Shown: one piece after another, positions 7,403 to 64,000 of the stretch | How the letters are laid out: each line of letters starts with the position of its first letter | How positions within the stretch are numbered: position 1 is the stretch's first letter | Origin: Candidatus Latescibacterota bacterium | GTDB taxonomy: Bacteria > Latescibacterota > UBA2968 | Length of the DNA stretch: 64,000 bases | Assembly (NCBI GenBank): GCA_965204375.1 | Contig: OZ241986.1 | Location: 4,096,001 to 4,160,000 of the forward strand | Direction of reading: 5' to 3' | Made by a program: the position numbers and the translations under genes | Notes under the pieces: generated by a model | Seen by the model: only the letters and a program-made list of their open reading frames with translations | Database searches by the model: none | Told to the model about the DNA's origin: nothing

Positions 7403-7420
7403 CACCGATTTCTCATAGCT

Positions 7421-7462: not shown

Positions 7463-7608
7463 ACGCCGATATTCCGTTTGCGTGCTGTCAAGCGCAAAAA
7501 AGCAATGGAATTTATGCATAGAAAATTGATTTGCTGATCAAAATATTCTTCATTATCTTCTCTGCACTTATTCCTTACCACCCATTCCTTAAAGGGAGGA
7601 CCATCGCG

Positions 7609-36432: not shown

Positions 36433-36437
36433 AGTTG

Positions 36438-38606: not shown

Positions 38607-38887
38607 GATTAATTCTCCGTAATTTTAATTTTTTGTTTTATAACGTATGAATATGATTTTTTTTATTTAATCCGGAGCGAACTACAGTCCGCAATATACA
38701 ATAATAGACGATATTGACCCTTCGTGCAAGGCCGGTATTACTATAGACACTCACGGTGGAACGACCAGTCTAAACTGTGGATAAATCACTGACATTACGC
38801 AAGAACCACCGAGGCAGTCACACCGGCAAGCGGTACATATCTTTCACATAACCGCCCACTCATCGCTCAAAATGTACCCTTTCGCCT

Positions 38888-38920
38888 TTCATCTGTGCCC
38901 ATCTGCGTCCATCTGCGGAT
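38888..38920. repeat. Decamer repeat (CCATCTGCG-type)
   Basis: TTCATCTGTGCCCATCTGCGTCCATCTGCGGAT. Confidence 0.75.
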
Positions 38921-39024
38921 TTAAATTCAGGTTGTAAACAAGTGTATAATACAGCATATTTAAAGCACAATGCGGTGTTTAGACGTCTGCCAACGCAAAA
39001 TATCGCTCAATTTTTGGAGGCATC

Positions 39025-39378
39025 ATGGACATCTTGCGCGAATCATCACTTTTTCAATCCCTTACTCAACAAAGCAGAGAGGAAGCCAGAGAGAAGGGCC
39101 TTGAGGAGGGTCTTGAGCAGGGTCTTGAGCAGGGTCTTGAGCAGGGTCTTGAGCAGGGCCTTGAGCAGGGCCTTGAGCAGGGCCTTGAGCAGGGGGTCAG
39201 GCAACGTGCCATCGAAGATATCCTCGAAGTGTTGGAGATTCGATTTGACTTGAGCGAAGCGCACCCCCTATCCACACGTATTACCGCCATTGACGATTTG
39301 CAACACCTCAAGCAGTTGCACCGTGCGGCAATACAGGTACCCAATATCGAGGCATTTCAGCGCGTGTTAGATGCGTGA
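39025..39378 (+). CDS. Stand-alone Rpn/DUF4351-like C-terminal protein with (GLEQ)n repeat
   Basis: GGAGG RBS; MDILRESS..; eight 12-bp units at 39097-39192; ILEVLEIRF..I.DLQ.LKQLHRAA. Confidence 0.7.
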   Translation: MDILRESSLFQSLTQQSREEAREKGLEEGLEQGLEQGLEQGLEQGLEQGLEQGLEQGVRQRAIEDILEVLEIRFDLSEAHPLSTRITAIDDLQHLKQLHRAAIQVPNIEAFQRVLDA

Positions 39379-39395
39379 CGTGATTGCCCAATGGA

Positions 39396-40618
39396 TCATG
39401 TGTCATCGGCGTCGAGACCTCGCAAACGTTGCTCCGCCAAATTTGCGAGGCTGTCATTGCCAGCCTCTCGTGCCAAGTCTCGTGCGTTCCCGAAATCCTG
39501 CCGCGCTTCGTCTATTAGATCTAACTCGCCTTTTGCAACACCCTTGTGGATGTATGCTTCCGCGTAGTCTGGTTTCAACCGAATCGCCTCGTCAAAATCG
39601 GCAATAGCGTCCTCATGCTGGCCTAATTCGCCTTTCGCAACACCCCTGTCGTAGTATGCATCGGCGTAGTCTGGTTTCAACCGAATCGCCTCGTCAAAAT
39701 TAGCGATGGCGTCTTCATAGTGGCCTAATTCGCCTTTCGCAACACCCCTGTCGTAGTATGCATCGGCGTAGTCTGGTTTCAGGGAGATTGCTCGGTCATA
39801 GGCCGAAATGCTGTCTTTCGAGTTCCCGAGCAAATAACCGACGGAGAACCACGCTCTTGCTGCGAACTCATTATCGCTTTCTTCCGCGACGTGAGCAACA
39901 GCGCGCCATTTCTCGATTGCCTCTTTTCTCTTGCCTTGCTGCTGGAAAAAAATGGCCTGAGCAATTGCCTTATGTATCAGCGATGCAGTGGGGTTTACAC
40001 GGATGTTCACGACTGCCTGCTTTGCTTCTTCAGGGTCATCGGCAACCTTTTCAGCGTCCATTCGTCGGAGGATCTCTTCAGTGTTATCTTCGATCTTATT
40101 AATCTTTTCTTCAAGGTGGCCCTGATCTCGCGTCTTGATCTCATCAATACTACCTTCGAGGGCTACCGAAATAGGGCTTTCCAGACTTGATGAACTTTCC
40201 TCAAGAGATTGAATTTGTCTTTTAATTTCGGTTTTGGCTTCTTCAACGCTATCGAGGTCTTGGTGATCAACTTGTATTGTTCTCATAGAGCCGACATCAA
40301 AAGGAATGTCCTCAACTTTGTTAATAATCTGAATGAGCGACTTGCCGATGTAATGCCGAATGGCTAATAAAAAATGTTGGCATTCTGTCCTGTTAAATCG
40401 GCTATGACCAAAGGAGCGTCAACAACATGTTGAATGATCTGATTAGTAATCATACCGGGCTGAGGGATATCGTCGGCACGAACAGCTTTGTAACCGCACG
40501 ACTCTACTACCGGACGAATAATGTGTTCTAAAACCTGATCAGATCGTTTGCGGATATCCGATCTCGGTTCACCGATGGGCGCAATGACGAAACAAATCTT
40601 CTCGCTATTATCTGCCAT
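39396..40618 (-). pseudogene. Nucleoside deoxyribosyltransferase/TIR-like domain fused to TPRs, frameshifted
   Basis: CFVIAPIG..VIADLTGQNANIFY* continues in another frame as LAIRH..IPFDVGSMRTI into the TPR ORF (39396-40286); 102-bp TPR repeats. Confidence 0.8.
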
Positions 40619-40620
40619 GT

Positions 40621-42009
<1,389 letters not shown>

Positions 42010-42031
42010 TTTGTTTTAATCGCGTGTAGTC

Positions 42032-42073
42032 AAAAACCTCTGGATCGCGGCTCAACACCATGCCGCGATGACG
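42032..42073 (+). repeat. Palindromic intergenic element (copy of 308-373 without the insert)
   Basis: CTGGATCGCGGCTCAACACCATGCCGCGATGACG. Confidence 0.75.
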
Positions 42074-42127
42074 ATTTAGTTGATAGATCGGGACGAATGT
42101 CAACATTTTCTTGCTTATCGTCGTCCT

Positions 42128-42433
42128 CTACACCATCACTTGCCGGGGTTTCACGCGCTTAGCAATGCGCTCGCCCACATCGATCTCAGCTTGACGAAGC
42201 TCGTAGGTCTTCTGCAGATTCAACCAGACCTGCGGCGTCGTTCCGAAATAGCGTGCTAACCTGAGTGCGATGTCGGCAGTTACGCTCTGCTGACCATTGA
42301 GGATCGCGGTGACGCAGCCTGGCGATACATCGAGTGCTTTAGCCAGCGCGTTAGCCGACAGACCGAGTGTGTCGAGTTCCTCGCTCAGTATCTCACCAGG
42401 ATGCACAGGTCTCATACCGTTTTTGACGTCCAT
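42128..42433 (-). CDS. higA: HigA family antitoxin
   Basis: MRPVHPGEIL, ALRLARYFGTTPQVWLNLQ..YEL. Confidence 0.92.
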   Translation of the reverse strand: MDVKNGMRPVHPGEILSEELDTLGLSANALAKALDVSPGCVTAILNGQQSVTADIALRLARYFGTTPQVWLNLQKTYELRQAEIDVGERIAKRVKPRQVMV

Positions 42434-42450
42434 GTTCTTACTCCCTGTGA

Positions 42451-42477
42451 GTGATAGTCCACGATCTCCACATCAAC
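42451..42477 (-). pseudogene. C-terminal remnant of HigB toxin
   Basis: Encodes VDVEIVDYH just upstream of higA. Confidence 0.7.
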
Positions 42478-42492
42478 AGATAAATCTGATAA

Positions 42493-44232
42493 TCATGGCT
42501 TAAACGGCCGGTACTCGACCAGTGCTGATCGGCCTACGATATCGACAATGCGAACGAGCATCTCCGTTCCATCCGCATCAGTTAATCGCAGATCTTCACC
42601 GGGAAGAAAGTGAACTGGCGGCTGTTCGCCTTGATTGATGGCAATATTGGAAGCGTACAGATAGGTTCTATCGAGATTATCGCGTTTAGGATTCAGCCTA
42701 CCTTTAAGCCCCGGAAGGGAACCAGTCGCCTCTGGGAAAATGACCGCACCACCGTCGGGAAGCGGCTTCAATTCAACTGTGAGCGCACCTTCTGAGGGCA
42801 TCCACTCTTGTTCGCAGTGCGCGGCAAAGCCGCGGGCAGCGACGAACACAGTCATCGGCAAATCAACCGTATGCAGACCAACAACGGCCTCGCCCAACGT
42901 ATCCGTCGTAGCCTGTCTCCAGGTCTTGTTCGGAAACAGTACCAGTACTTCCGCATCGGCAAGCGGTTGCTCGTCGGCACGCACGGTAATGAGCACGCGG
43001 GCCGGGCTCGGCTCAGTAGAGGCCGCCGGTAGCGTAACGCGAAGATCTGCTCTCCCAACCAGATCGAATCGCGGTAGGCGCCCGGCGAGTTCGCGTGTTT
43101 CTCGTCGAATGATGGGGACACCATCCCCGCGCCTTTCCATGATGAAAATCCGACCACCAGCCCCCTGGATACTGCTGGTCGGCATCCGGCCTAAAACCGA
43201 GGCAAGCACCTCGTTGCGCGTCGCCTGCCGATATTCCAACTCATCTACTGTCAGACGATTGGCTAATGTACCCGGCGACTGGATTTCCACTCGATCGGCG
43301 AACATCGACAGACGAATCCGGCTACCGCGCATCGAATAGTCGCGATGGACCACAGCATTGGTGAGAGCTTCAAATAAGGCTTCTGCGCTGTACTGCGGCA
43401 AATCCATGCGAGCCGGATCTTTGTAAGCACCGACACGCATATTACGCACGGCAAAGGCGACCGCTTCGGCAATTTGTCGGTTGAGGGGACCAGTAATCGT
43501 CTGGGTGTCGAGTTGTCCGGAGGCGCGATCAGTGCCGCGGTAATGGGTGGCTGTAATACAGGCATTGGGAAACCATTCCTCCGGGGTATGACTACAAAAG
43601 AGGAGGCCAGCAACAGTCGCTCGCACCGTGCCGTGTTCGTCCTGTCCAAGAAGACCCATTTTTTCCAATGCCGTTTCTGGATCATCCCTGCCTTCCGCAC
43701 TCAACAACGGTTTCCACAGGGCTTCGTCCAGCGTTCCCAATCCTGTATTGGACACCGGCTGCTTGTCGAACCAGAGGAACCTCGCTTGTCCCCGCAGTTG
43801 CGCCAAACGCAGTCGCTCATCACTCGTCATCCTCCGCTTTGACCCGCCTACCCGAACATAACTACCACCCGGACTATCATGCTGCGATTCTCCCTGCGGC
43901 ACTTCGACCAGCAGCAACCGCTTGCCATCCAGTTCTCTGTGATAAGTGTTGATGCGAACAGCTGGTTTGATGGCATCAGAGCTAACCTCAACCAGAACAG
44001 AATCCAGCGCGACGATCTGTTCACGCGACAGGCCCTGAATCTCACCTGCGTCGGTAACGCCGCAGAGCAGCATACCGCCGTTCGCATTGGCAAAAGCCGC
44101 GATCTCATCGGCCAAATCATCGCGGCTCGGACTTCTGGGCCGATTCCCGGAAAACGCGATCTGCTTAAATTCCCATAAACTATCCTCACCCAGACGCAGT
44201 TGGCGTGCAATATCCTGGTCGCTATAGTTCAT
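42493..44232 (-). CDS. AlbA_2/Schlafen-like domain plus HATPase_c_4 (RecG-C-like) protein with C-terminal extension
   Basis: GED..WEFK, IAAFANANGG.LLCGV.D, EALTNAVVHRDY, VEIQSPG, RNEVL, MERRGDG. Confidence 0.85.
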   Translation of the reverse strand: MNYSDQDIARQLRLGEDSLWEFKQIAFSGNRPRSPSRDDLADEIAAFANANGGMLLCGVTDAGEIQGLSREQIVALDSVLVEVSSDAIKPAVRINTYHRELDGKRLLLVEVPQGESQHDSPGGSYVRVGGSKRRMTSDERLRLAQLRGQARFLWFDKQPVSNTGLGTLDEALWKPLLSAEGRDDPETALEKMGLLGQDEHGTVRATVAGLLFCSHTPEEWFPNACITATHYRGTDRASGQLDTQTITGPLNRQIAEAVAFAVRNMRVGAYKDPARMDLPQYSAEALFEALTNAVVHRDYSMRGSRIRLSMFADRVEIQSPGTLANRLTVDELEYRQATRNEVLASVLGRMPTSSIQGAGGRIFIMERRGDGVPIIRRETRELAGRLPRFDLVGRADLRVTLPAASTEPSPARVLITVRADEQPLADAEVLVLFPNKTWRQATTDTLGEAVVGLHTVDLPMTVFVAARGFAAHCEQEWMPSEGALTVELKPLPDGGAVIFPEATGSLPGLKGRLNPKRDNLDRTYLYASNIAINQGEQPPVHFLPGEDLRLTDADGTEMLVRIVDIVGRSALVEYRPFKP

Positions 44233-44263
44233 CGGACACCTCCAAAATCAGCACTCGTTCTAT

Positions 44264-45100
44264 TCATCCTTCACCCCTCTTCACCTGCGGCTCTCTCGGA
44301 AGCAGTACTTGCGGTTGAACGATCCGGCGGCGTTGTGGCGTAAGGCGTTCCAGCAACTCGGGTGAAGGCTGGTACCCGTGCCGGAAATTCCCCCACGAAG
44401 GCCCGTACCGATACACCACGACACGCCGCGTCCCCTCATTCACCCGCTTCGCCGACCCGTGTGAAATCCCATCCACAAAAACCAGCGCATCGCCCGCCTT
44501 CATAAACACCTCAATCGCACCCACCGTACCCTCCACAGACCTGTCTTCCCCCATCCTCTGCTTATCGTAGTACGGATGTCTGAAATTCGCCTTGTGACTC
44601 CCCGGAATCAACATCGTCCCCCCGTCGCCCGGACCGATATCCGTCAGCGCCATCAGCACATTCACCTGCCCGCACATAAACCGCCCGCCGTGAAACCGGA
44701 ACTGATTCCTCGTAATCGGCGGAAACCCGCCCGAATGCAACCCAATCGCCTCGCCCGGCTCGCGAAAATTGGCAAAACACTCATCGATAAACATCGGACC
44801 GTGATGGTGATCAAACGACCCCTCCGCGCCGATAAAAAGCTTCACATGCTCAAACCACGACGGATGATCAATCAAATCTTCAAACGGCTCGCCCGCCTCG
44901 TAAATCTGCTGATAATTGATCCCCGACGTCACATCGCCATACGAATGTCCCTGAACATACCCGAACCACTCCCCCGGCCTCAGCGCGGGAATCTCATCCA
45001 AACCATCATTCAACGCCTGAACCTCATCCGAAGTCAGTGCCCCTTCCAAATGCAAGTACCCCCGCAGGTCAAACAAATAAACATCGAGATCTGGAACCAT
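44264..45100 (-). CDS. PhyH-family Fe/2OG enzyme with HXG motif
   Basis: YLFDLRGYL, GLHSGG, LTDIGPGDGGT.LIPGSHK, ISHGS, RR. Confidence 0.85.
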   Translation of the reverse strand: MVPDLDVYLFDLRGYLHLEGALTSDEVQALNDGLDEIPALRPGEWFGYVQGHSYGDVTSGINYQQIYEAGEPFEDLIDHPSWFEHVKLFIGAEGSFDHHHGPMFIDECFANFREPGEAIGLHSGGFPPITRNQFRFHGGRFMCGQVNVLMALTDIGPGDGGTMLIPGSHKANFRHPYYDKQRMGEDRSVEGTVGAIEVFMKAGDALVFVDGISHGSAKRVNEGTRRVVVYRYGPSWGNFRHGYQPSPELLERLTPQRRRIVQPQVLLPREPQVKRGEG

Positions 45101-45192
45101 TGTCACGCTCCTTGTCAACATGATCTATTCATATCGCAAGTTATGATAAACTCTTACACGCTTAAAAGCCATATCATTTTTTGGCAGTCAAC

Positions 45193-45305
45193 AAAACCCT
45201 CCTGGATCGCGGCCATAAGAAGTGAGAAGGCCACCCAACACCTCTCACGTCTCGCGTTTTACGTTTCACCTGCCTTTCACACTTCACACTTCCTACTTCA
45301 CACTT
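45193..45305. repeat. Partial palindromic element plus composite heptamer element
   Basis: CTGGATCGCGG then GAAGTGAGAAGG-CCACCCAACACC...TTTCACCTGCCTTT-(CACACTT/CCTACTT)4. Confidence 0.8.
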
Positions 45306-45363
45306 GCCTCATTCCCCTCCACACTATATAATTTGGAAACATCGTGAAAACGGATACTCAAAC

Positions 45364-46209
45364 ATGGAACGACAAAACCCAAAAAACATGCGTGAACGCA
45401 CACCTGAAACCATGCGCGGTGAAGAAACCGAAGAAGAAACGCTCATCGAGGAAGAAGAAGAAACGCAACCCCTGCTCGAAGAACGGCTCACCTTGCGAAA
45501 ACCGCTCGGCTTATTATTTGACCTGGGCGACACCCTCTTAACATACCTCAGATTTGATCCAGAAGCCGGGCATGCGGCCACACTTAACATCGCCAACAAC
45601 CCATTGGGTTACACAGTCGCAGACATTGACAACCACATAAAAAAACTCAACCGCGACCTCATACCCCGCAGGGAAAAAGCACAAGTAGAATTTCATCCCC
45701 ACATCATCCAGCGCCACGTCTATGAAGCCCTGCACATCACCTTTGACCGCACCCCTGAAGAAGTCGAACGCGTATTCTGGCGTGCGGCAACATCGTGGCA
45801 GCCCGAACCGGGCGTAGAATACGTCCTCGAAATATTGCGAAACAAAAACATACCCATGGGCATCGTCAGCAACGCCGCATTTTGCGGCAACACATTGATA
45901 TGGGAAATCGAACAACAGGGAATCGCGGACTACTTCCGCTTTCTCATGTCCAGCGCCGACTACTGGGTGCGCAAACCCCATCCCCTCCTGTTGGAAACCG
46001 CCGCCGCCAAACTCGGATTCAAACCCGCAGACGTATGGTATGTGGGCAACTCACCACAATACGATATCGCAGCCGCGCACAACGCCGGCATGGGCGCCGT
46101 ATGGTACAACCGTTTGGACGCCCCTCTCGATGGACCCGACCCCCATGTCGAAATCAAAAGCTGGCGCGAATTTTTAGAACTGGTCGAAGGCTTTTATTTA
46201 AAAATATAA
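45364..46209 (+). CDS. HAD family hydrolase
   Basis: FDLGDTL, VSN, RKP, YVGNS..YDI; start uncertain. Confidence 0.85.
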   Translation: MERQNPKNMRERTPETMRGEETEEETLIEEEEETQPLLEERLTLRKPLGLLFDLGDTLLTYLRFDPEAGHAATLNIANNPLGYTVADIDNHIKKLNRDLIPRREKAQVEFHPHIIQRHVYEALHITFDRTPEEVERVFWRAATSWQPEPGVEYVLEILRNKNIPMGIVSNAAFCGNTLIWEIEQQGIADYFRFLMSSADYWVRKPHPLLLETAAAKLGFKPADVWYVGNSPQYDIAAAHNAGMGAVWYNRLDAPLDGPDPHVEIKSWREFLELVEGFYLKI

Positions 46210-46222
46210 AGGGAGAACCACG

Positions 46223-47458
46223 ATGTCCGATTTTTCAATCGCAGAAGCCGTACACAACGCATTTCAAAACCACGCCATCGTCGATATACACACCCACCTC
46301 TATCCCGCCTCCATGGGCGAACTCTACCTCGCGGGACCCGACGAACTATTGACCTATCACTACCTCAAAGCCGAATGCTCGCGCATGTTGCCCGAAGGCA
46401 TCGCAGTTGACACATTCAACAACATGCCCACCACAGAACAAGCCGACATCATCTGGCAACAACTCTTCGTCGGCAACAGCTCCCCAATATCCGAAGCCCA
46501 ACTCGGCGTCGTCACCGTCATGAACCGCCTGGGACTAAATCCCCGCGCAAAAGACCTGTCCGAATTTCGCGCCTTCCACAAATCAAAAACACCCGAAGAA
46601 TACACCGACATGGTCTTTGAAAGCGCTGGCGTCGCCTGTGTCTATATGACCAACGACCCCCTCGACGACACCGAAGGACCCATGTGGCAACAGGACATCG
46701 ACATCGACCCGCGCTTCAGAGCAGTCCTGCGCCTGGACAGCGCACTCATGAACTGGCCCGCCCCCGCCGACAAACTCCGCGCGTTGGGATACGATGTAGA
46801 AGACTGCCTATCCGACAAAACCTTCTCGGAACTGCGGCGCTACCTCACCGACTGGGCACAAAAAATGAACGCCCGATACATGGCCATATCGCTCCCCCCG
46901 GACTTTGCTTATCCCTCTGAAGACAGCATCTCACAAATGATGGGCAACGTCGTATATCCCACAGCCCGGGAATTGCAAATCCCCTCGGCAATGATGATCG
47001 GCGTCACGCGGCAAGTCAACCCAACCCTCAAAGACGGCGGCGACAGCCTGGGCAAATGGGACATCGCCAACCTCGAACGCATCGCGCGCGACTGGCCCGA
47101 CGTCAACTTCCTCATCACCCTCCTCTCGCGCGAAAACCAGCACGAACTCTGCGTCACCGGACGCAAATTCCCCAACGTACACCCCTTTGGCTGCTGGTGG
47201 TTCTTGAACAACCCCAGCATCATCCGGGAAATCACAGCCGAACGCCTCGAACTCCTCGGCACCAGCTTTGTACCTCAGCACTCCGACGCCCGCATCCTGG
47301 ACCAGCTACTCTACAAATGGACCCACTCCATCGGCGTCATAGCACCCGTCTTCATCGACAAATACGAATCGCTTCGCGCCGCGGGCTGGCCCCTCACCCC
47401 GGCGGATATTCAGCGCGACATCTCCACCATGTTTGGAGGCGGCAAATTACTGGACTGA
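46223..47458 (+). CDS. Uronate (glucuronate) isomerase-like amidohydrolase
   Basis: DIHTHL, MTNDP, GCWWFLNNP, PQHSDARILDQL.YKW.H. Confidence 0.85.
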   Translation: MSDFSIAEAVHNAFQNHAIVDIHTHLYPASMGELYLAGPDELLTYHYLKAECSRMLPEGIAVDTFNNMPTTEQADIIWQQLFVGNSSPISEAQLGVVTVMNRLGLNPRAKDLSEFRAFHKSKTPEEYTDMVFESAGVACVYMTNDPLDDTEGPMWQQDIDIDPRFRAVLRLDSALMNWPAPADKLRALGYDVEDCLSDKTFSELRRYLTDWAQKMNARYMAISLPPDFAYPSEDSISQMMGNVVYPTARELQIPSAMMIGVTRQVNPTLKDGGDSLGKWDIANLERIARDWPDVNFLITLLSRENQHELCVTGRKFPNVHPFGCWWFLNNPSIIREITAERLELLGTSFVPQHSDARILDQLLYKWTHSIGVIAPVFIDKYESLRAAGWPLTPADIQRDISTMFGGGKLLD

Positions 47459-47566
47459 TGGAGGACCAGCCAGCCAAAACAATGAGGATACCACTTTGGG
47501 CATCAAAAAAGCGCCATCCTAACAGGACGACGCGCTTTCAATCATATTTCTATTAGAGGTTTCAAA

Positions 47567-48328
47567 ATGTCACCTGTCAATCCAGGAAGTACATTAGGTC
47601 AAGCAATTGGCAATCTCTTTGAGAGCAAACTTGAAGAAATTCTGAGAAAAGTTGTAGAAAATTCTGGATATGTATATCACAGCGGTCGCGATCCTTTACC
47701 GGATTACACCGGAAAGACCTTGAGAGCAAAAGACAAAAATGGCAAATTCTGGAGCATTGATTCAGCAGTAACGGACGAAAACGGCCATCTCATCATCTTG
47801 GGAGAAATGAAATATATCCAGAGGGCAAAACATGCCACCGATAAAGGAAGTTGGATCTGTAATTGTCATACACTGCTTCGCCAAACTTATCCCACCATAC
47901 GCGCATCCATAGCAATGCTGGCAGGTGGATGGACTGAAAATGTGCGCGAAATGATACGAGATACCGGAACAGATATCTTTTTTGTACCTTATGAGGAGGT
48001 TGTGAACACATTTTCGCAAAAAGGAATCGCGATTAACTGGACCGATGCCACAAGCGATGTGGCTTCTCAAATTGCCTGGGAAGCATTTGGTCATCTTGAT
48101 GAACAAGCGTTAGATGAAATTAAGGACTCTATAATCCAAAAAATCGCAGAACCTTTGAAAATGCACGTCGAGAACATATTAAACGACAAACAAGAACGAA
48201 AGATCACTAAAATCGAGATCAATATTCAAACCAACAAAGGCGAAACAATTAACGTGCAACATTCCAATGCAGAAGAAGCGCAAGCTGCTCTTAAAAATCT
48301 ACAGTCTCATCCTTTTTTTGAAAACTGA
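47567..48328 (+). CDS. Putative type II restriction endonuclease (PD-(D/E)xK)
   Basis: GQAIGNLFE, ID..x12..GEMK; convergent with a DNA methyltransferase. Confidence 0.65.
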   Translation: MSPVNPGSTLGQAIGNLFESKLEEILRKVVENSGYVYHSGRDPLPDYTGKTLRAKDKNGKFWSIDSAVTDENGHLIILGEMKYIQRAKHATDKGSWICNCHTLLRQTYPTIRASIAMLAGGWTENVREMIRDTGTDIFFVPYEEVVNTFSQKGIAINWTDATSDVASQIAWEAFGHLDEQALDEIKDSIIQKIAEPLKMHVENILNDKQERKITKIEINIQTNKGETINVQHSNAEEAQAALKNLQSHPFFEN

Positions 48329-48330
48329 AG

Positions 48331-49653
48331 TCATTTGATTAGCGTCAAAATACCTTCGCTCAATTTGACCGAATGACGCTGAGGGTTATTTTTCCATTTT
48401 CCACCTCTTGTTCTTAAAAGTTCGAAATCGTAATCAGAAAAGCCGATAGCTAAGCCCAATTTGCCAATATATTCATAGATGGGAATATATACGCCATACG
48501 GTGCTGAATCACCCAATACGAGATGGAATTTTGCTCCTTTTTTCATGGTTCGATACGTATCGCTTAAAACGCGAAACATATCATTATGGTAACCAGCAAC
48601 CATAAGATCATAACTCTTCTTACCTCCCCTAACGAGTCTCAATTCGGAAAGCTTATGAATCTTCTCAAGGAGGCCATTATATACTTCTCGGTTCCCCTGT
48701 TGGATGGCATCGTCCAAAGGATTAGCTTCAAAATCACCCCGGTTAATTTGAGTCGTTGCAGAGGTAATAAGCTGTGTTCTAACTTTTTTTGTGATCTCAC
48801 CCCAAGTTCTTGCAAACCCCCAAAAATAGGTCTCAAAACGCGTTCTATCAGCATAATCGTAATTGTTTAAATAGGGGGGCGATGTAAAGACACAATCAAA
48901 AATACCATCTTCGAGTATCCCCATTGTATTTCGACTATCTCCTTTAATCGGATGAGCACTGGCGAGTCCCTTTTGATGTGCATAAAGATATAGATCGTCA
49001 TACATCATCCACAGAACTTGCTTGAAAGAGACCAAACCATCCGTTTCTCGAATTTTCTTTTTAGGAGCAATATAGGGCCATCCTGTTGCCGCTCCTGAAG
49101 AAATACGCAGAGCACACGTCAACGCTGTTTTAAAAAATGCGTGATAAGGTTCTCGCTTTTTCTTTATTATTTCTCGAATAATGTGGAGGCGGGCGAGATT
49201 CGTGTCTGACAGACATTTCCGAATCAATTCGGGATATTCTGATAGATCAATTTGTTCAAGGTTGGCTGCATTGATTAAATCACTTGCTTTATTGATAACC
49301 TCTTGAATCTTAAAATAGAGCTTTTCATAGTCGAAATCCCAATACAATTTAGAAGAAGCAATTTCGTAAACAAAAGGATGAGCTTCTACACCATAAGATT
49401 CAATACCCTGGAGCTTGGCTACAATCAAAGTTGTACCTGTGCCCATAAAGGGATCATAGATAGTCTTGCCTGGACAAAGACCATCTTGGCGTATAATTTC
49501 TTCTACGGCCTTATAAGAAAAGCCTGCAGGATACTGGAACCATCTGTGTATCGGTGCTGTCTTGCTGTCTCGAAACGTCCCATAATTAGCCTTCAAACTC
49601 CCATTGACCGGTATACTTTTTTCTGTTTTTAAGGAAAGACCAAGCTGTGCCAT
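48331..49653 (-). CDS. Amino-DNA methyltransferase (likely N4-cytosine)
   Basis: IHRWFQYPAGFS, DPFMGTGTT (motif I) before TSPPY (motif IV). Confidence 0.9.
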   Translation of the reverse strand: MAQLGLSLKTEKSIPVNGSLKANYGTFRDSKTAPIHRWFQYPAGFSYKAVEEIIRQDGLCPGKTIYDPFMGTGTTLIVAKLQGIESYGVEAHPFVYEIASSKLYWDFDYEKLYFKIQEVINKASDLINAANLEQIDLSEYPELIRKCLSDTNLARLHIIREIIKKKREPYHAFFKTALTCALRISSGAATGWPYIAPKKKIRETDGLVSFKQVLWMMYDDLYLYAHQKGLASAHPIKGDSRNTMGILEDGIFDCVFTSPPYLNNYDYADRTRFETYFWGFARTWGEITKKVRTQLITSATTQINRGDFEANPLDDAIQQGNREVYNGLLEKIHKLSELRLVRGGKKSYDLMVAGYHNDMFRVLSDTYRTMKKGAKFHLVLGDSAPYGVYIPIYEYIGKLGLAIGFSDYDFELLRTRGGKWKNNPQRHSVKLSEGILTLIK

Positions 49654-49819
49654 TGTTATCTCCCTTGGTAAAGAGTGAGGAGTGCTACAGAAAAGGTGAA
49701 TAGGGCAAGGGGAGAAATAAACTCTTGTCTGCCGAAAAAACGACATAAGTAGATAAGACAAAGTTGATATACTCACAAAAATTGAGTGTGTCAACCCTAA
49801 AACAGGACATTGATTCCCC

Positions 49820-50344
49820 ATGAATTGGCGTTATAATATCACGGTTATAATTAGTGTATGTTTTTTCCTTTCAGGATCGGGGTTGTGTGCGCCGTATAAA
49901 ATTTATATCTTTATGGGAGAAACCTGTCCGGTCTCGCGGCATTACACCTTAACGCTCAAAAAATTGCACGCAGAATACGCATCTGAAAAACTCGAATTCA
50001 TCGGCGTATTCCCCAATCGGCTCTCCACACCAGCCACAATTGCCGCGTTCAAAGAAAAATACGCCTTGCCATTCACCTGCATCGGGGACGCCACCCACAC
50101 ATGGGTGAACCGCCTGGGGGCAACCATCACGCCAGAAGTCGTCGTCACCGACACATCGCACACCGCCATCTATCGGGGTCGCATTGACAACACCTTTGCG
50201 AGCCTGGGCAAAAGACGCCGCATCATCACCGAACACGACCTCACAGAGATACTGAACGCCCTCAAAAACGAAAAACCCCCGGCATTTCGCCAAACCCGGG
50301 CCATTGGCTGCATCATAACCTCATGGCAAAATACAAAGGAATAA
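49820..50344 (+). CDS. Secreted redoxin/thioredoxin-like protein
   Basis: Signal peptide, CPVS, GATITPEV, YRGRID, AIGC. Confidence 0.8.
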   Translation: MNWRYNITVIISVCFFLSGSGLCAPYKIYIFMGETCPVSRHYTLTLKKLHAEYASEKLEFIGVFPNRLSTPATIAAFKEKYALPFTCIGDATHTWVNRLGATITPEVVVTDTSHTAIYRGRIDNTFASLGKRRRIITEHDLTEILNALKNEKPPAFRQTRAIGCIITSWQNTKE

Positions 50345-57989: not shown

Positions 57990-58020
57990 AAAAAACCCGG
58001 TCTTAAACTGAGACCGGGGG
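57990..58020 (-). terminator. Intrinsic terminator
   Basis: CCCGGTCTC..AAGACCGGG followed by a T tract on the minus strand. Confidence 0.7.
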
Positions 58021-58066
58021 AGAAATTTCATATTTGTAGTGGCGCATTCGAGAAGCCCTTTTCTGT

Positions 58067-58354
58067 TCAGGGCTTAGCAAAGGTCATAATGATTGAAACG
58101 GTTGTACCGACATTTGCAAGCAACACAACGACCAGCAGGCCAATAAGCCACCTGAAATTGCTGTTATTGCGAATGTCCATGTTGGCCAATCGGGTGTCCA
58201 TATTGGTCAACCGGGTGTCCATATTGGAAAAGCCGTTGTCAACGCGGGTTTCAAGGCCAGTCAAGCGCGTGTTCATTTGTTCAGCAATTCCCTCGACGCG
58301 CGCCAGGCGGGCGTCCATTTCGGCCAGTTTGTCTTGTGGTGTCGGAATCTGCAT
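58067..58354 (-). CDS. Small coiled-coil protein with heptad repeats and C-terminal TM
   Basis: (NMDTRL[T/A]) 21-bp repeats; FRWLIG TM; paralog of 51945-52151. Confidence 0.75.
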   Translation of the reverse strand: MQIPTPQDKLAEMDARLARVEGIAEQMNTRLTGLETRVDNGFSNMDTRLTNMDTRLANMDIRNNSNFRWLIGLLVVVLLANVGTTVSIIMTFAKP

Positions 58355-58467
58355 GGGTTTCTTTCTTCGTGTGTGGTAGTCTATACTCCGTCTATGGAAT
58401 TATACCAGACCTTTTAGACTTAAGCAAGTCCTATGGGCTTTTTTTTCGTAAATCTGACACATGACGC

Positions 58468-58554
58468 CTATCTTTGTGAACGGACATCAAAATCAAAGAT
58501 CCCCTTGAGAATCACATACCCCTGAGATTCAAACTGTTCTCGTAATGCACGCAT
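58468..58554 (-). pseudogene. PhyH N-terminal fragment
   Basis: MRALREQFESQGYVILKGIF then runs into a duplicated 43-bp segment and stops. Confidence 0.5.
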
Positions 58555-58584
58555 AGCTAACAGAAAACTCGGTCACGGACCAGA

Positions 58585-58962
58585 CTATTTAGCCTGAAAC
58601 GGTATTTGTATCTTTTTTCCTTTTTGCTTCATTTGTCGCCGTTTCAGATATGCGGCTATTGAAGTGATAAAAAATAAAACAAGGGATCCAATCCCGCAGA
58701 CTGTCAGTGAAAATGAGAAACCAGATTGTATAATTGCGACGAGGAAGGCTATGAAGGCACTGAAAAGTGTAGAAGATATGAGAGCCCATATCTCGTATTG
58801 ACTAAGGACAGATGAATCCACCATCTCTATTTCAATAGTCTCCGGCACGGAAACCATTATGTTCAAAGCCCTCGCAAAAGGGGCTGAACTTGGCTCAGAT
58901 GAATCGGCATCAACTTCATCATGATCTACAGCAGACTCTATGTCTTTGCTTTCGTCTTCCAT
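58585..58962 (-). CDS. Hypothetical 2-TM membrane protein
   Basis: Acidic N-terminus, two hydrophobic helices, basic tail; start overlaps the upstream stop. Confidence 0.7.
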   Translation of the reverse strand: MEDESKDIESAVDHDEVDADSSEPSSAPFARALNIMVSVPETIEIEMVDSSVLSQYEIWALISSTLFSAFIAFLVAIIQSGFSFSLTVCGIGSLVLFFITSIAAYLKRRQMKQKGKKIQIPFQAK

Positions 58963-59258
58963 CAGGCGGTTCTCTCTCTTATTTTTGACCAGGCCGTTTT
59001 GGGCAACCAGCCATCGTATTGGCCTCCATACATTAAGGGGCTAATGACGAAGTAGGTCGTAGCAGTAGAACTCTCGGCTACTGCTTGAAGGTTTTCCCTA
59101 ATCCCTTCCCATGCTTCCTGACTGGGCACGCTGACGATGTAAAAAGTGCTGAGAGGTCGTACCCAAGAGTAACCTTCTAAACACTCTAGTAGTCGGGAGT
59201 TGATCTCGTCCCACTCTTTGTCTTCCGATTGAATATCCCACGACACTATAAAGTGCAT
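58962..59258 (-). CDS. Cas2/VapD-like ferredoxin-fold small protein
   Basis: FIVSWDI N-terminal strand with Asp, W.RPLSTFYIV, GWLP..AW; AGGAGAGG RBS. Confidence 0.55.
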   Translation of the reverse strand: MHFIVSWDIQSEDKEWDEINSRLLECLEGYSWVRPLSTFYIVSVPSQEAWEGIRENLQAVAESSTATTYFVISPLMYGGQYDGWLPKTAWSKIRERTA

Positions 59259-59374
59259 GACCCTCTCCTTATTTATAAAGCACCTGTCATGTTATGCACG
59301 GCAAGCTAAGTTAAGAGAGTATTGATCCCCATTTTTTGGCTATTGAGAAAATATGATGTAATAGTAATCTATTG

Positions 59375-60697
59375 TCAAGATGCTCGGCTCTGTTTATCCA
59401 GATAAACCGTAACCTGTCCATCAGTTTCATCCACGGTTGCGTTGGTGAATTGGCCGGTCAGACCAGACCCAGAAATATTCACCACCCCACCGTCAGACAC
59501 CACATCTAATGTATCAAGCCCCGCTATCGTCAACCTCAGAACGCCATTCATCAGCGGATGAGGACCCACTGCCACAGTCAGCGCCACAACATCATCCATC
59601 CTATCCGTCAGCATCTCCAGTTGACCACTCTCGTGATGGATGTGAACGAACCGCGAGTGAAGAACACCCCCTTCTACAATCACGAGATTACTGGGATCCG
59701 TACCACTTACCCACAGTGGCTCCGTATCAGGTGCGATAACAGACAAGCGCATGCCCACCTGTGAATCAAACGCTCGCCTTTGCTCAGATCGCTGTGCAAG
59801 CAGGTCTTGCACATCTACTCTTGCAACAGCCTCAAAATGCGCGATCTCCGATTCGGTAAATTCTCCACACTGACCCCCGCTCTTTTCGAGAACCTCTAAA
59901 AGATATACATCCAACGCCTGCGCATCATCCGCCTCAAATGCCGTCTTCCACATTGGCGCAAACGCATCGAGCAAAACCGCAAGCGCATGCCCTATCTCGT
60001 AGCAGCGTCCGCGCACCTCATTCGCGGCATAACCCTCCCGTGGCAAATCCACGCGCGTCCGGCCCACAGACATCGCCTCCACATAAGAGGCAAGCCCTTC
60101 CAGCAACTCTGTCCCCCGTTCATAGGTAGAAAACTCCAGCGCCATCCCCGCATATCGGTCCTGCCGCGCCCTCAGCGCCCTCAGCGTCCAGCATCGCTTC
60201 TCCTCGGACCCATTCGCAGCAAGCGCCCGTCGCAATGCCTCTGTCTCCATCCGCCGAAGAAATAGCAAATTCGCATCATCCACCGGAAAAAGATAACGTA
60301 CAACTTCGTTTCCCTGCCAGGTGGGATGGCAAGCCTGTTGATAGACGTGGAACGCCTCGTGAATTGCTACAGAAGCCAGAACTGTCGGCGCTTGATTTGC
60401 CGACCTATCGAACATAACGCTGGCCGTGGGCGTTCCCGCAATCTCAACAACACTGCTGGCCGTCACGACTGGATAGCGTCCATCGTACACAAGCACATCG
60501 CATTCACCAACCCGCATCTCCCTAAAACCCTCGGGAACCTCCGAACATCGAAAAAGATATGTATCCTCGCCATCATAGAAAACAAGAGGAATCGCGAGCG
60601 GATCAAAGCCCGGCCACAGTTCACCCTGTGCAACCAGACGCTCAATCTCACGCGCCAAATCTGACACATGACGCCTATCCTTGAAAACGGACATCAA
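59375..60697 (-). CDS. Hypothetical protein with zincin-like HExxH motif
   Basis: IHEAFHVYQ and downstream EGLASYVE. Confidence 0.7.
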   Translation of the reverse strand: MMSVFKDRRHVSDLAREIERLVAQGELWPGFDPLAIPLVFYDGEDTYLFRCSEVPEGFREMRVGECDVLVYDGRYPVVTASSVVEIAGTPTASVMFDRSANQAPTVLASVAIHEAFHVYQQACHPTWQGNEVVRYLFPVDDANLLFLRRMETEALRRALAANGSEEKRCWTLRALRARQDRYAGMALEFSTYERGTELLEGLASYVEAMSVGRTRVDLPREGYAANEVRGRCYEIGHALAVLLDAFAPMWKTAFEADDAQALDVYLLEVLEKSGGQCGEFTESEIAHFEAVARVDVQDLLAQRSEQRRAFDSQVGMRLSVIAPDTEPLWVSGTDPSNLVIVEGGVLHSRFVHIHHESGQLEMLTDRMDDVVALTVAVGPHPLMNGVLRLTIAGLDTLDVVSDGGVVNISGSGLTGQFTNATVDETDGQVTVYLDKQSRAS

Positions 60698-61056
60698 AAA
60701 GACACTCCCTCATCCTCCCGCTGATACGACGCTGTAATCTCGTGATCGATACCACCGCGAATATTGAAGCGGCTGATCACCTCCATCTCAACCGGATCGC
60801 ACAGATCTACCAGATCGTTCAAAATCTGATTCGTCACAGGCTCCATATAAATCCCCTGATCTCGGAACGACCAGAAATAGTGCTTCAGCGACCGCAACTC
60901 CACGCACCGCGGACCCGGAACATACCAGATCACAATCGTCGCAAAATCCGGCTGCCCCGTCTTGGGACACAGCGACGTAAACTCCGGAAACGTAAACTCA
61001 ATCGTATAACGCCGTTCTGGATTCGGATTATCAAACGCCTCTAAGATCGAACTCAT
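60694..61056 (-). CDS. queF: NADPH-dependent preQ0 reductase (unimodular)
   Basis: PEFTSLCPKTGQPDFA, VELRSLK.Y, E..TN.IL.DL, RGGI. Confidence 0.92.
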   Translation of the reverse strand: MSSILEAFDNPNPERRYTIEFTFPEFTSLCPKTGQPDFATIVIWYVPGPRCVELRSLKHYFWSFRDQGIYMEPVTNQILNDLVDLCDPVEMEVISRFNIRGGIDHEITASYQREDEGVSF

Positions 61057-61073
61057 ACCTCATCCTCGCGCCC

Positions 61074-61103
61074 TATCTGCGTCCATCTGCGTCCATCTGC
61101 GGA
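61074..61103. repeat. Decamer repeat between the two queF copies
   Basis: TATCTGCGTCCATCTGCGTCCATCTGCGGA abutting the TGA at 61104. Confidence 0.8.
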
Positions 61104-61445
61104 TCACGCCTCGCGCTCATACGCTACAGACACCCGCGTCTCAATACCACCTCGCACTGTAAAATCACCCGTCACATCCAACGTCACAGGATCGCACGCC
61201 GCTACAAAATCATCCACAATTTTATTAACCACACCCTCGTAAAACACCTTCTCATCCCGAAACGACCCCAAATACCGCTTCAACGACATCTGCTCCACAC
61301 ACACCTCTCCCGGCACATAAGAAATCGAAACCGCGGCAAAAATCGGCTGCCCCGTCACCGCGTACAGCGCCGTAAACTCCGACGTCTCAAATTCAATCGT
61401 ATAATCTCGCTCGCGCTCGGGATTTTCAACGCACTTTATTTTCAT
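61104..61445 (-). CDS. QueF paralog lacking catalytic Cys and Asp
   Basis: EFTALYAVTGQPIFA, VEQMSLKRYL.SFR, YE.VVN.I.DD, RGGI. Confidence 0.85.
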   Translation of the reverse strand: MKIKCVENPERERDYTIEFETSEFTALYAVTGQPIFAAVSISYVPGEVCVEQMSLKRYLGSFRDEKVFYEGVVNKIVDDFVAACDPVTLDVTGDFTVRGGIETRVSVAYEREA

Positions 61446-61451
61446 AACACC

Positions 61452-62618
61452 TCACTCAAACGGCACCCGACTCGCGCCCACCGGATCGGGACTCGTGGGC
61501 CGAATCGGCATCTCCTCATAAGAACGATAAGCCACATCCAGATGCGGCGCCTCAACCCGCCTGTACCCCTCATACCGCGAATCTATCAACGCCTCCAGTG
61601 CGCCGGAAATCAGCAACGTGCGCTCAACCGGATACTGCGGCTTACCCGTCAAAAACATCTGCTGAATATTCAAACTCAAATAACTGAAATGCGCGTGCGG
61701 ATTATCCGGCAAAAAAACGCGCATATTATCCACCGCTCCATTGCGCCGCGCCGCAAAACCCCACCCCCGCGTGTACCCATTCAACATAAACGTCGCCGCC
61801 TTCAACCCATCTGCATACTCCAACAAAAAAACAGCCGGATTCTCGCAATGATCGCGCACATCGCCATCCTCCTTCGCCTCAATATGCGCCACCGCCGCCG
61901 CGTACAAATCGCGATCCCACGCACTCGACGCCCAGACATCATCCCCCTCCAGACACTGCACCGCCACAATCCCCGTCTCTCCACCTGTGCGGCGCTCAAC
62001 CATACACTGCAGCGTCTCCAGCGCGTGAAACCCATAAGAATCAAGCCCACCAAAAGCCACCGACACCGCCGTCTCAATCTCCGTATCCAACTCATACTCA
62101 AGCCACGGCTTGCGCCATGCAAGCGGCAGAGACGACCCCGCCATAAACGGCACATCGAGTTCCCGCGCGCGATCGCACATCCACTTTGCATCGTGCCAAT
62201 TATACGAAAGATGCTTATCGCTAAACACCGGCACAGACCGCCCCGACGAAGCGAACACCCCGCAAATCTGCTCAAAAAAATACTTGCGCGGATACATGTG
62301 TTGCTCCTTCTCATTCCACGGATAATCGCCGTGCTCCCCAATCAGCAACACCCCATCCACAGCAAGCTCATCACCCCCCAAAGTCAACGCCTGGTTAATA
62401 CTCCCGCACATCGGCACACCGTATTCCTCTGCAATCGCGCACCCGATATCATCTCTAAAATGCACCTGATCCAGATACATCGACACCACATCCACCTCTG
62501 GCGAAAGCAACCCGTCATCTGTTGGAAACCCCTTCAAAAACTTCGTCACAATCACATCGGCGTGTGACCGCGGAAAATACGACGTAATCACCGCTGCAAT
62601 TTTCTTTCGATCAGCCAT
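61452..62618 (-). CDS. Gfo/Idh/MocA-like hypothetical oxidoreductase
   Basis: SHADVI, LAVDGVLLIGEHGDYP, PVF.DKHLS, MAGSSLP, YGFHALE. Confidence 0.75.
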   Translation of the reverse strand: MADRKKIAAVITSYFPRSHADVIVTKFLKGFPTDDGLLSPEVDVVSMYLDQVHFRDDIGCAIAEEYGVPMCGSINQALTLGGDELAVDGVLLIGEHGDYPWNEKEQHMYPRKYFFEQICGVFASSGRSVPVFSDKHLSYNWHDAKWMCDRARELDVPFMAGSSLPLAWRKPWLEYELDTEIETAVSVAFGGLDSYGFHALETLQCMVERRTGGETGIVAVQCLEGDDVWASSAWDRDLYAAAVAHIEAKEDGDVRDHCENPAVFLLEYADGLKAATFMLNGYTRGWGFAARRNGAVDNMRVFLPDNPHAHFSYLSLNIQQMFLTGKPQYPVERTLLISGALEALIDSRYEGYRRVEAPHLDVAYRSYEEMPIRPTSPDPVGASRVPFE

Positions 62619-62774
62619 AGCTTTTCCCTCCAATTGCGTGCCTCGTTTTATAATCGTTAAATTATATCACAATTCGAGAAAAACCAATATCTAAATATTC
62701 TTACATCCTCACGCCCAAAATTTGGTATCTTAAACACCTGAAATATAACTCTAACCCTTACCAGGAGGAATCAC

Positions 62775-63380
62775 TTGACCGAAGTAAAAGCCACCAACAT
62801 CGTCTGGCACGAAGGCCATGTCGGGCGCAAACAGCGCGAAGACCTGCTCGAACAGAAAGGCGCACTCATCTGGCTCACCGGCCTGCCCAGCTCGGGCAAA
62901 AGCACCATCGCATTCACCACAGAACACGCCCTGATCGAACGCGGGCGCATGGCCTACGTACTCGACGGCGACAACATCCGCCACGGCCTCAACAAAAACC
63001 TCGGATTCTCAGCCGAAGACCGCGCTGAAAACATCCGCCGCATCGGCGAAGTCGGCAAACTCTTTGCCGACGCCGGCATCATCACCCTATCCAGTTTTGT
63101 AAGCCCCTATCGCATTGACCGCGACGGCGTGCGCGAACTCATGGAAGACAAAGACTTCATCGAAGTATTCATCGACACCCCGCTCGACGTATGCGAAGAA
63201 CGCGATCCCAAAGGCATGTACAAAAAAGCGCGCACAGGTGAAATACCCAACTTCACCGGCATCTCTGACCCTTATGAACCGCCCGAAAACCCCGAACTCG
63301 TCATACACACCGTTGACAGCACCCCACAAGAGGCCGCATTGCAAATCATCGCCCTGCTCGAAACGCGTGGAAACATCTAA
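62775..63380 (+). CDS. cysC: Adenylyl-sulfate kinase
   Basis: WLTGLPSSGKST, LDGDNIRHGL, RDPKG.Y, FTGISDPYE; AGGAGG RBS and TTG start. Confidence 0.95.
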   Translation: MTEVKATNIVWHEGHVGRKQREDLLEQKGALIWLTGLPSSGKSTIAFTTEHALIERGRMAYVLDGDNIRHGLNKNLGFSAEDRAENIRRIGEVGKLFADAGIITLSSFVSPYRIDRDGVRELMEDKDFIEVFIDTPLDVCEERDPKGMYKKARTGEIPNFTGISDPYEPPENPELVIHTVDSTPQEAALQIIALLETRGNI

Positions 63381-63382
63381 CA

Positions 63383-64000
63383 ATGCCCATCATCGACCTC
63401 ACCATGCCCATTGCCGACCACTTCCGCTGGCCCGTAGAGCGCAGCCTCAAAAGCAGTTTTGAAACAGGCGACATGGCGCAAGTGACCCACATGGGATGGG
63501 CAGTCCACGGATTTACGCACGTCGATGCGCCGCGCCACATGTTCCCGGAAGGACCCACCACCAGCGACACCGAACTCGACCAAATCGTGGGACAGGCCGC
63601 AGTCGTCGATCTCTCGGGCATCGCGCCAGAAACGCCGATCACCGAAGCGCAGATTCGCGCTGCCGGACAGCACATACGATCCGAAGACATCGTCGTCATG
63701 AAAACGCGGTGGGACGAAGTGGAATCACATCAAACCCCTGAATTCTGGACCCGCGCGCCCTACATGTCGCGCCCCGCCGCAAAATGGCTACACGCGCAAA
63801 ACATCCGCGCCATCGCATTTGACTTTCCGCAAGACTATCCCATCCGCCAATTGCTCAGTGGCCAGAGAGCACCCCTCTCCGAATTCGTTACCCACGACAT
63901 CCTCTTGCGCGAAGGCATCATCCTCATCGAATACATCTGCAACACGGGCATGCTCACTGAGGACCGCGTACCCTTCTTCGCCCTGCCCTTAAAAATCCCC
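63383..64000 (+). CDS. Cyclase/kynurenine formamidase family protein (runs off the window)
   Basis: IIDLT, HGFTHVDAPRH, HDILL.EGI.LIE, ALPLKI. Confidence 0.85.
   Translation, partial: MPIIDLTMPIADHFRWPVERSLKSSFETGDMAQVTHMGWAVHGFTHVDAPRHMFPEGPTTSDTELDQIVGQAAVVDLSGIAPETPITEAQIRAAGQHIRSEDIVVMKTRWDEVESHQTPEFWTRAPYMSRPAAKWLHAQNIRAIAFDFPQDYPIRQLLSGQRAPLSEFVTHDILLREGIILIEYICNTGMLTEDRVPFFALPLKIP

Follow-up and report, generated by a model that had tools for sequence, protein, structure and literature searches.

A conserved tandem of cysteine-less and catalytic-type QueF paralogues in Latescibacterota, a candidate heteromeric nitrile reductase

The stretch of DNA analyzed here, 64,000 nucleotides of contig OZ241986.1 (assembly GCA_965204375.1, positions 4,096,001 to 4,160,000) from a Candidatus Latescibacterota bacterium and hereafter called the window, encodes two QueF paralogues in tandem. 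The upstream paralogue (UP) lacks the catalytic cysteine and aspartate of the family, and the downstream paralogue (DN) carries both. The pair is real and conserved, and it represents a variant of this known family that had so far gone unremarked. The evidence suggests that the dead copy works as a partner of DN or has taken on a new role, and that it is not a duplicate in decay. In the reading that we favor, and hold with slightly less than even confidence, UP would co-assemble with DN into a heteromeric nitrile reductase, as a subunit without catalytic activity.

QueF is the sole known biological nitrile-to-amine reductase and has been studied as a biocatalyst (PMC13740343). Its active site lies between subunits in unimodular enzymes and within the subunit, between the two modules, in bimodular enzymes (PMC5699537, PMC5372742). 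The initial annotation of the window had described this architecture, including the Cys-less, motif-bearing N-terminal module of bimodular QueF, in agreement with these accounts and with PMC13740343, and had proposed that the tandem genes are a split analogue of the bimodular enzyme.

Results

UP has lost the catalytic residues and keeps the QueF fold

Residue numbers are those of Bacillus subtilis QueF (4F8B), taken from ungapped alignments (UP residue plus 27, DN residue plus 25); the B. subtilis enzyme (4F8B, 4FGC, 5UDG) is the closest solved relative of both proteins. UP and DN are 49% identical over 110 residues, with no gaps. Both match the Pfam QueF family PF14489 (UP, 93.8 bits, E 7.4e-27; DN, 100.8 bits, E 5.1e-29; cut-off 27.3) and exceed the cut-off of the NCBIfam unimodular equivalog TIGR03139 (129.6 and 163.6 bits, respectively; cut-off 86.9). 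With the bimodular model TIGR03138 they score 48.3 and 50.4 bits, far below its cut-off of 293.45. Neither protein matched GTP cyclohydrolase I (FolE; PF01227, TIGR00063) at E ≤ 0.01.

The replacements of Cys by Tyr and of Asp by Ile noted in the initial annotation were confirmed by alignment with 4F8B (Table 1). Throughout the UP family (n = 64; defined below), Tyr55 is present in 64 of 64 sequences, and position 62 is Ile in 61 and Val in the remaining 3. UP keeps Glu78, Lys83, Tyr85, Arg90, Glu97, and Arg125-Gly-Gly (RGGI), so that the substrate Glu and the RGGI of the annotation are also there; Glu78 and Glu97 are retained in 100% of the family. These two glutamates anchor the base in QueF, as described in PMC13740343. 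The claim that UP keeps the QueF motif stood only in part. Compared with the published consensus of eight positions, E(S/L)K(S/A)hK(L/Y)(Y/F/W), the UP motif E-Q-M-S-L-K-R-Y fits at five, the deviating residues being Gln, Met, and Arg. Lys80 is thereby lost: of 164 canonical representatives, 94% have Lys at this position, whereas the UP family has Met there in 97% of its members and, as a further fixed substitution, Gln79 in 98%.

Table 1. Residues of UP and DN at functional positions (B. subtilis QueF numbering)
Position	UP	DN
33	Val	Phe
55	Tyr	Cys
56	Ala	Pro
62	Ile	Asp
78	Glu	Glu
79	Gln	Leu
80	Met	Arg
83	Lys	Lys
85	Tyr	Tyr
95-97 (B. subtilis FHE)	Phe-Tyr-Glu	Tyr-Met-Glu
130	Thr	His

The Cys and Asp variants of QueF reported in PMC13740343 (C190A/S, D197N/A/H) are inactive. 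UP is therefore not expected to be a preQ0 (7-cyano-7-deazaguanine) reductase (EC 1.7.1.13), because it lacks both the nucleophile Cys55 and the proton relay Asp62; judged by its residues, having no thiol nucleophile, Asp62, or Lys80, it cannot reduce a nitrile. The protein is nonetheless predicted to be well folded. Its AlphaFold2 model has a mean predicted local distance difference test score (pLDDT) of 92.6, and the top Foldseek match of this model is B. subtilis QueF (4FGC/4F8B; template modeling [TM] score 0.90, root mean square deviation 1.3 Å, 42% identity).

DN retains a complete set of catalytic residues

Cys55, Asp62, Glu78, and Glu97 are present in 22 of 22 DN orthologues, which bears out the annotated Cys and Asp of the downstream copy, and DN also keeps Phe33, Lys83, and Tyr85. 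Its motif, E-L-R-S-L-K-H-Y, fits six of the eight consensus positions; His84 is unusual, and Arg80 occurs in 5% of the 164 canonical representatives. The residues specific to the DN lineage are Arg80, His84, Tyr95, Met96, Pro98, and Asp129-His130-Glu131, and four of them (Arg80, His84, Tyr95, His130) are fixed in all 22 orthologues. His130 is found in none of the canonical representatives and, among the sequences compared, only in DN and in the fused protein P0211 described below; in B. subtilis QueF, this position is among the residues named as touching preQ0 (PMC13740343). The YME that the initial annotation pointed out in place of FHE is present and is not special, since position 96 in the 164 representatives with Cys and Asp is His in just 71, Tyr in 52, Met in 21, Asn in 15, Phe in 3, and Gln in 2. 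DN lacks both Cys99 and Cys53, described as "backdoor" cysteines in PMC5372742. From this set of residues, DN is very probably able to reduce the nitrile of preQ0 to give preQ1 (7-aminomethyl-7-deazaguanine), and with both half-sites complete it can probably work alone.

X393, UP, and DN form a conserved block under purifying selection

The window is a segment of a bacterial chromosome (51.7% G+C) and carries ordinary housekeeping genes. Within it, three close-packed open reading frames (ORFs) on the minus strand at 60694-62633 follow one another in the order X393, UP, DN (Table 2). The stop codon of X393 and the ATG of UP are 6 nt apart, and the intact frame and GAGGTG ribosome-binding site that had been annotated for UP are both present. 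A genome scan, in which the nearest relatives of the window were Latescibacterota metagenome-assembled genomes (MAGs), matched 75 stretches, 21 of which encode a relative of UP; these 21 are all from Latescibacterota MAGs. X393, UP, and DN occur in the same order and orientation with intact ORFs at all 21 related loci and in the window (22 genomes), with identities to the window copies of 64-93% for UP, 80-98% for DN, and 75-96% for X393.

Table 2. Features of the locus (window coordinates)
Feature	Position	Strand	Description
X393	61452-62633	-	393-aa protein, Gfo/Idh/MocA-like fold, directly upstream of UP
Ribosome-binding site of UP	61448-61453	-	GAGGTG; overlaps the X393 stop codon (61452-61454)
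UP	61104-61445	-	Cys-less QueF paralogue, 113 aa ("dead" copy)
UP-DN spacer	61057-61103	-	47 nt; short tandem repeat and a second copy of the junction and ribosome-binding site
DN	60694-61056	-	QueF with Cys55 and Asp62, 120 aa ("active" copy); presumed preQ0 reductase
X440	59375-60697	-	440-aa ORF; TTG start overlaps the DN stop

In about 15 of the 22 genomes (L017 is ambiguous), the stop codon of UP and the start codon of DN share 4 nt. Seven genomes (the window, L001, L005, L007, L010, L013, and L021) carry 47-128 nt between the two genes, at about 6333-6471 in the related loci. Short tandem repeats or GC-rich palindromes make up these inserts, which come with a second copy of the junction and of the ribosome-binding site. 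The ancestral state is the 4-nt overlap, which inserts have split in 7 of 22 genomes.

Selection was estimated by the Nei-Gojobori method from the 22 orthologue sets (231 pairs per gene) as the ratio of nonsynonymous to synonymous substitution rates (dN/dS). The median dN/dS was 0.267 for UP (179 usable pairs), 0.119 for DN (181 usable pairs), and 0.120 for X393 (202 usable pairs), and deep window-to-locus pairs of UP gave 0.11-0.20. UP is under purifying selection that is about twofold relaxed relative to DN. Among 108 positions compared, 43 are invariant in UP and 70 in DN. In UP, conservation is highest in the former Cys loop (41-63), where 14 of 23 positions do not vary, and in the motif helix (76-90), where 9 of 15 do not. 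Thus, the dead copy neither evolves neutrally nor is confined to one strain, two of the findings that the initial annotation had said would speak against its proposal: it belongs to a family of 64 members and adjoins DN at 21 of 21 loci.

The wider flanks differ among six divergent loci and contain no queuosine genes: no queC, queD, queE, or tgt was seen within 6 kb at these loci or in the 64-kb window. X440 is full length at 3 of the 21 related loci, fragmentary at 7, and absent from 11. Because X440 is mostly lost and the flanks vary, the conserved block consists of X393, UP, and DN alone. No family match was obtained for X440, in which there is an HExxH-type motif (HEAFH); its distribution suggests that this clade is losing the gene. 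Searches for RNA elements yielded no Rfam match at the gathering threshold in the entire window, hence no preQ1 riboswitch, and no tRNA gene in a tRNA scan; in a promoter and terminator scan of 58000-63500, the number of sites was not above that in shuffled sequence.

In one related locus (L011), the first ~19 residues of the UP orthologue (5992-6339) are DN-like and Phe33 is restored, and P0021 is alike. This start is an apparent case of gene conversion between the paralogues.

Tyr55 paralogues form a family in sequence databases

A word-indexed search with UP returned 90 matches, of which 63 clusters (P0001-P0063) make up the UP family together with UP itself. Their identity to UP runs from 93% down to 57%, and all have Tyr55 with Ile62 or Val62. 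Two further matches, P0066 and P0067, combine Tyr55 with Cys62; the others are 24 canonical sequences and one truncated sequence. When 1.84 billion representatives were searched with a profile, 4172 matches reached E ≤ 1e-3, and the best 150 proteins of these yielded 153 aligned domains. Cys and Asp are both present in 142 of the 153; in 5 others, truncation removes one or both of these columns. Four domains clearly lack the Cys, namely P0045, the single representative of the UP family, P0217 (Tyr55 and Cys62), and the N-terminal modules of the fused proteins P0211 and P0230. The two odd rows are P0337, with Val at the Cys column and Asp kept, and P0350, apparently a misaligned fragment.

Several variants of the Tyr55 type were observed. 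P0066, P0067, and P0217 (Cys62) and P0062 (Val62) fall in one clade with UP, and all four have a hydrophobic residue at the position of Lys80; one Tyr55/Cys62 type is labeled Gemmatimonadetes by its source. In a subclade of the UP family (the L014-L017 orthologues and P0027-P0036; 9 of 64 members), position 96 is Cys instead of Tyr. Cys at position 32 is found in 59 of 64 UP members, as against 7 of those canonical representatives that have a residue there.

The UP relatives P0018, P0034, and P0046 are labeled "preQ(1) synthase" or "7-cyano-7-deazaguanine reductase" in public sources. UP passes TIGR03139, and reductase labels on Cys-less proteins of its type are probably a systematic mis-annotation. 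A tblastn search of plasmids with UP gave 42 records, all below 60% identity and each matched in one place, with no tandem pairs seen; 13 of the 15 matches listed were annotated queF. A search of the ESM Atlas with UP recovered generic QueF clusters only. Literature searches turned up no paper that describes a Cys-less paralogue of the unimodular QueF type. In an earlier survey of the family, a sequence was set aside as "non-QueF" if it was without the motif or without any of Cys55, Asp62, and Glu97 (PMC5372742), a filter by which Cys-less paralogues were removed from view.

Fused relatives combine a dead and a Cys-bearing module

The Tyr55 sequences form one clade (support 96/97 in one tree and 99/98 in another), and the DN orthologues form a separate clade (100/99). 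A sister relationship of the two clades is weak in one tree (91/76) and unresolved in the other. The UP and DN subtrees branch in similar order.

Two metagenomic proteins, P0211 (304 aa) and P0230 (282 aa), each contain two modules of the TIGR03139 type (TIGR03138, 75-83 bits), with a dead N-terminal module followed by a C-terminal module carrying Cys and Asp. They thus resemble the UP-DN arrangement, differing in that each is a single chain and distant (30-49% identity). In P0230, the N-terminal module has no Cys and an intact motif, and the C-terminal module has Cys, Asp, and FHE and has lost the motif, a division of labor like that of the Escherichia coli enzyme. The C-terminal module of P0211 is nearest to DN (49% identity, 115 bits), with Met96 and His130 common to both; its N-terminal module is nearest to the Tyr clade (30-32% identity; 17.7 bits against DN) and has also lost Glu78. 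In the tree, the C-terminal module of P0211 joins DN (97/90) and the N-terminal module falls inside the Cys-less clade (99/98), both on long branches. As evidence for a common origin with the UP-DN pair, this fusion is suggestive only.

X393 belongs to a much larger family

X393 had no Pfam match even at E ≤ 10 and no NCBIfam match, and it was not recognized by PF01408. A profile search of the PDB returned a single marginal Gfo/Idh/MocA match (E 0.98). The assignment to this fold comes from the AlphaFold2 model (pLDDT 93.6), whose top Foldseek matches are GenD2 (6NOR) and glucose-fructose oxidoreductase, with a TM score of about 0.55. Residues 17-25 stand in place of the glycine-rich dinucleotide (NAD(P)) loop. 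All 8000 candidate homologues scored reach E ≤ 1e-5, and the family comprises thousands of clusters; it is highly conserved, with identities of 65-70% across phyla, as in matches named Poribacteria, and Atlas clusters come from Planctomycetota and Chloroflexota. Since this family is far wider than the 63 UP clusters, the tie of X393 to QueF is lineage-specific.

Other features of the window

A defense-type cluster at 34427-49821 includes type I restriction R, S, and methylase parts, a DUF2290 protein, a UvrD-like helicase, and a Schlafen AlbA_2/HATPase_c_4 protein. Interspersed in it are dioxygenases of the PhyH family, of which the entire window has four. On the plus strand at 5576-9372 are two adjoining paralogues of ~610 aa, in which the sole recognized domain is a C-terminal FlgD Ig-like domain.

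Discussion

In the heteromer that we favor, DN would be a working NADPH-dependent nitrile reductase that converts preQ0 to preQ1, and UP a well-folded T-fold subunit that joins it in mixed T-fold oligomers. The two faces of each site were assigned from the residue lists for bimodular enzymes in PMC13740343, to which we added the placement of residue 33. Cys55, Asp62, residues 95-97, and residue 130 form the catalytic face; the second face is made up of Val77-Glu78-residue 79 and the motif helix, probably together with residue 33. Mixed rings would then contain composite sites that pair the catalytic face of DN with the Glu78 face of UP, as well as dead sites whose nitrile pocket is occupied by Tyr55 and Ile62. 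The presence of UP would stabilize, tune, or protect the reductase. Much of the second face is kept in UP, and its first face is remodeled and fixed; since the most constrained segments of UP, the Cys loop and the motif helix, are the two faces that form the site, we counted them in favor of co-assembly. The divergence of DN at Arg80, His84, Tyr95, and His130 is what would be expected if UP and DN had co-adapted. The similar branching of the two subtrees and the residues that UP retains also count for this reading. The initial idea of a heteromer or a pseudoenzyme subunit is carried forward by the existence of a family, the gene order, the translational coupling, selection, and the fused proteins P0211 and P0230.

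It is carried forward without its stricter form. In the split of the E. coli type, the motif is present only in the Cys-less module and Cys only in the motif-less module, and UP and DN do not divide in this way, because DN retains both half-sites and has not lost what UP keeps. To call the pair a split analogue of the bimodular enzyme thus overstates the case. No link of the pair to the origin of the YqcD family emerged either, with TIGR03138 scores of 48-50 against 293 bits and all 21 loci in Latescibacterota.

Several observations weigh against a heteromer of any form. DN is complete on paper (Phe33, Glu78, Lys83, Tyr85, Cys55, Asp62, Glu97) and needs no partner, and neither protein shows a loss made good by the other, such as P0230 displays between its modules. 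In unimodular QueF, two pentamers pair to form the enzyme (PMC5372742), and two kinds of subunit cannot alternate in an odd-numbered ring, which raises a problem of stoichiometry. The fixed replacement residues Tyr55, Gln79, and Met80 would be no less compatible with a new function of the pocket than with the role of a passive subunit. Among 78 candidates, no longer fused relative of UP was found. As for P0211, a grouping of its two modules as sisters, as expected from independent internal duplication, was not rejected by the approximately unbiased test (p 0.118, for a group chosen once the tree was known).

Several of these points favor the main rival, in which UP is a stand-alone, neofunctionalized T-fold homo-oligomer whose pocket binds preQ0, preQ1, or another purine or pterin non-covalently. 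Such a pocket would be remodeled by Tyr55, Ile62, Gln79, Met80, and Val33 around the retained Glu97 and Glu78, and the protein could carry or buffer a ligand, act as a sensor, or catalyze new chemistry in a pathway shared with DN and X393. The substituted residues are near-invariant and lie within the most constrained segments of UP, and the two purine-anchoring glutamates are kept in every member. QueF mutants with Cys changed to Ala or Ser still bind preQ0 non-covalently (PMC13740343), the wider Tyr55 clade varies at position 62 (Cys in P0066, P0067, and P0217; Val in P0062), and DN appears self-sufficient. A separate protein would nevertheless have no need of close coupling to DN, the 4-nt overlap included, or of co-divergence with it, no ligand or activity is known, and the loss of Lys80 speaks against NADPH-dependent chemistry. 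We regard this alternative as unlikely, if still worth serious consideration. Decay without function, by contrast, is very improbable. The catalytic residues are gone, UP evolves about twice as fast as DN, and fewer of its positions are invariant; these signs of relaxation are countered by a dN/dS far under 1, a confident structure model, and Tyr55 kept across 63 clusters down to 57% identity. We rejected the decaying duplicate on the strength of intact UP ORFs at all loci (22 of 22 genomes) and purifying dN/dS.

A further alternative, which we consider improbable, makes X393, UP, and DN a pathway outside queuosine synthesis. DN, with Tyr95, Met96, and His130, would act on another nitrile or 7-deazapurine with the assistance of X393, and a housekeeping QueF would reside elsewhere in the genome. 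X393 is the sole further gene that stays with the pair as the flanks change, His130 is restricted to DN and P0211 among the sequences compared, and the window shows no preQ1 riboswitch and no queC, queD, queE, or tgt, genes that are also missing within 6 kb at the six divergent loci. However, que genes in bacteria frequently lie scattered over the genome, every residue found essential by mutagenesis is kept in DN, which scores almost twice the TIGR03139 cut-off, and the X393 family dwarfs the UP clusters.

Among known systems, both architectures of QueF share features with the pair. Bimodular YqcD-type enzymes (E. coli, Vibrio cholerae) have the same order, in which a Cys-less module with the motif helix precedes a module with Cys, Asp, and Glu, and an active site between the two (PMC5699537, PMC5372742, PMC13740343). 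They differ in that UP and DN are separate genes of the unimodular sequence type, that the active DN keeps its own motif helix, and that the UP motif is without Lys80. With unimodular YkvM-type QueF (B. subtilis, 4F8B), the pair shares fold and length class, and DN shares all essential residues. The B. subtilis enzyme is, however, a homodecamer from one gene, and UP is without Cys55, Asp62, Lys80, and Phe33.

QueF-Like, the archaeosine synthase of Crenarchaeota, offers a paralogue of another kind (5JYX against the UP model: Foldseek TM score 0.80, 17% identity). The nucleophile of QueF-Like is a conserved Cys, and UP is its reverse, with no Cys and most of the motif helix kept. QueF-Like is also a unimodular paralogue in which nitrile reduction is lost (PMC10516641, PMC5699537); it differs in forming a covalent thioimide intermediate, as the title of entry 5JYX states, and in the elimination of the NADPH site (PMC5699537).

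Dead paralogues retained as partners of active enzymes have precedents in the trypanosome S-adenosylmethionine decarboxylase and its prozyme and in the eukaryotic heteromeric tRNA-guanine transglycosylase. Those proteins have other folds, and binding has been demonstrated there, whereas that of UP to DN is proposed.

There is a modest chance, well short of even, that UP and DN, perhaps with X393, represent a heteromeric T-fold nitrile reductase that has not been described, or else that the Tyr55 clade is a new non-covalent class of 7-deazaguanine proteins. In the heteromer, every working site would receive one of its faces from the Tyr55/Ile62 pseudo-subunit, and UP could alter specificity, cofactor use (Lys80 being lost), or redox protection. 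Such protection might involve Cys32 of UP, which adjoins the substrate-stacking position 33, in a complex with a DN that is without backdoor cysteines. In the non-covalent class, Tyr55-clade proteins would bind or transform 7-deazaguanines without covalent catalysis.

For genome annotation, the pair means that a protein that cannot be a preQ(1) synthase passes the NCBI equivalog model for one. For the family, the characterized forms of QueF are all homo-oligomers or fused two-module chains, and the passage from homomer to heteromer is the assumed route to bimodular QueF. If our reading holds, this conserved, selected, and coupled pair would be a natural example of a homomeric T-fold enzyme turning heteromeric, and it would provide a handle on how specificity is controlled through a subunit interface.

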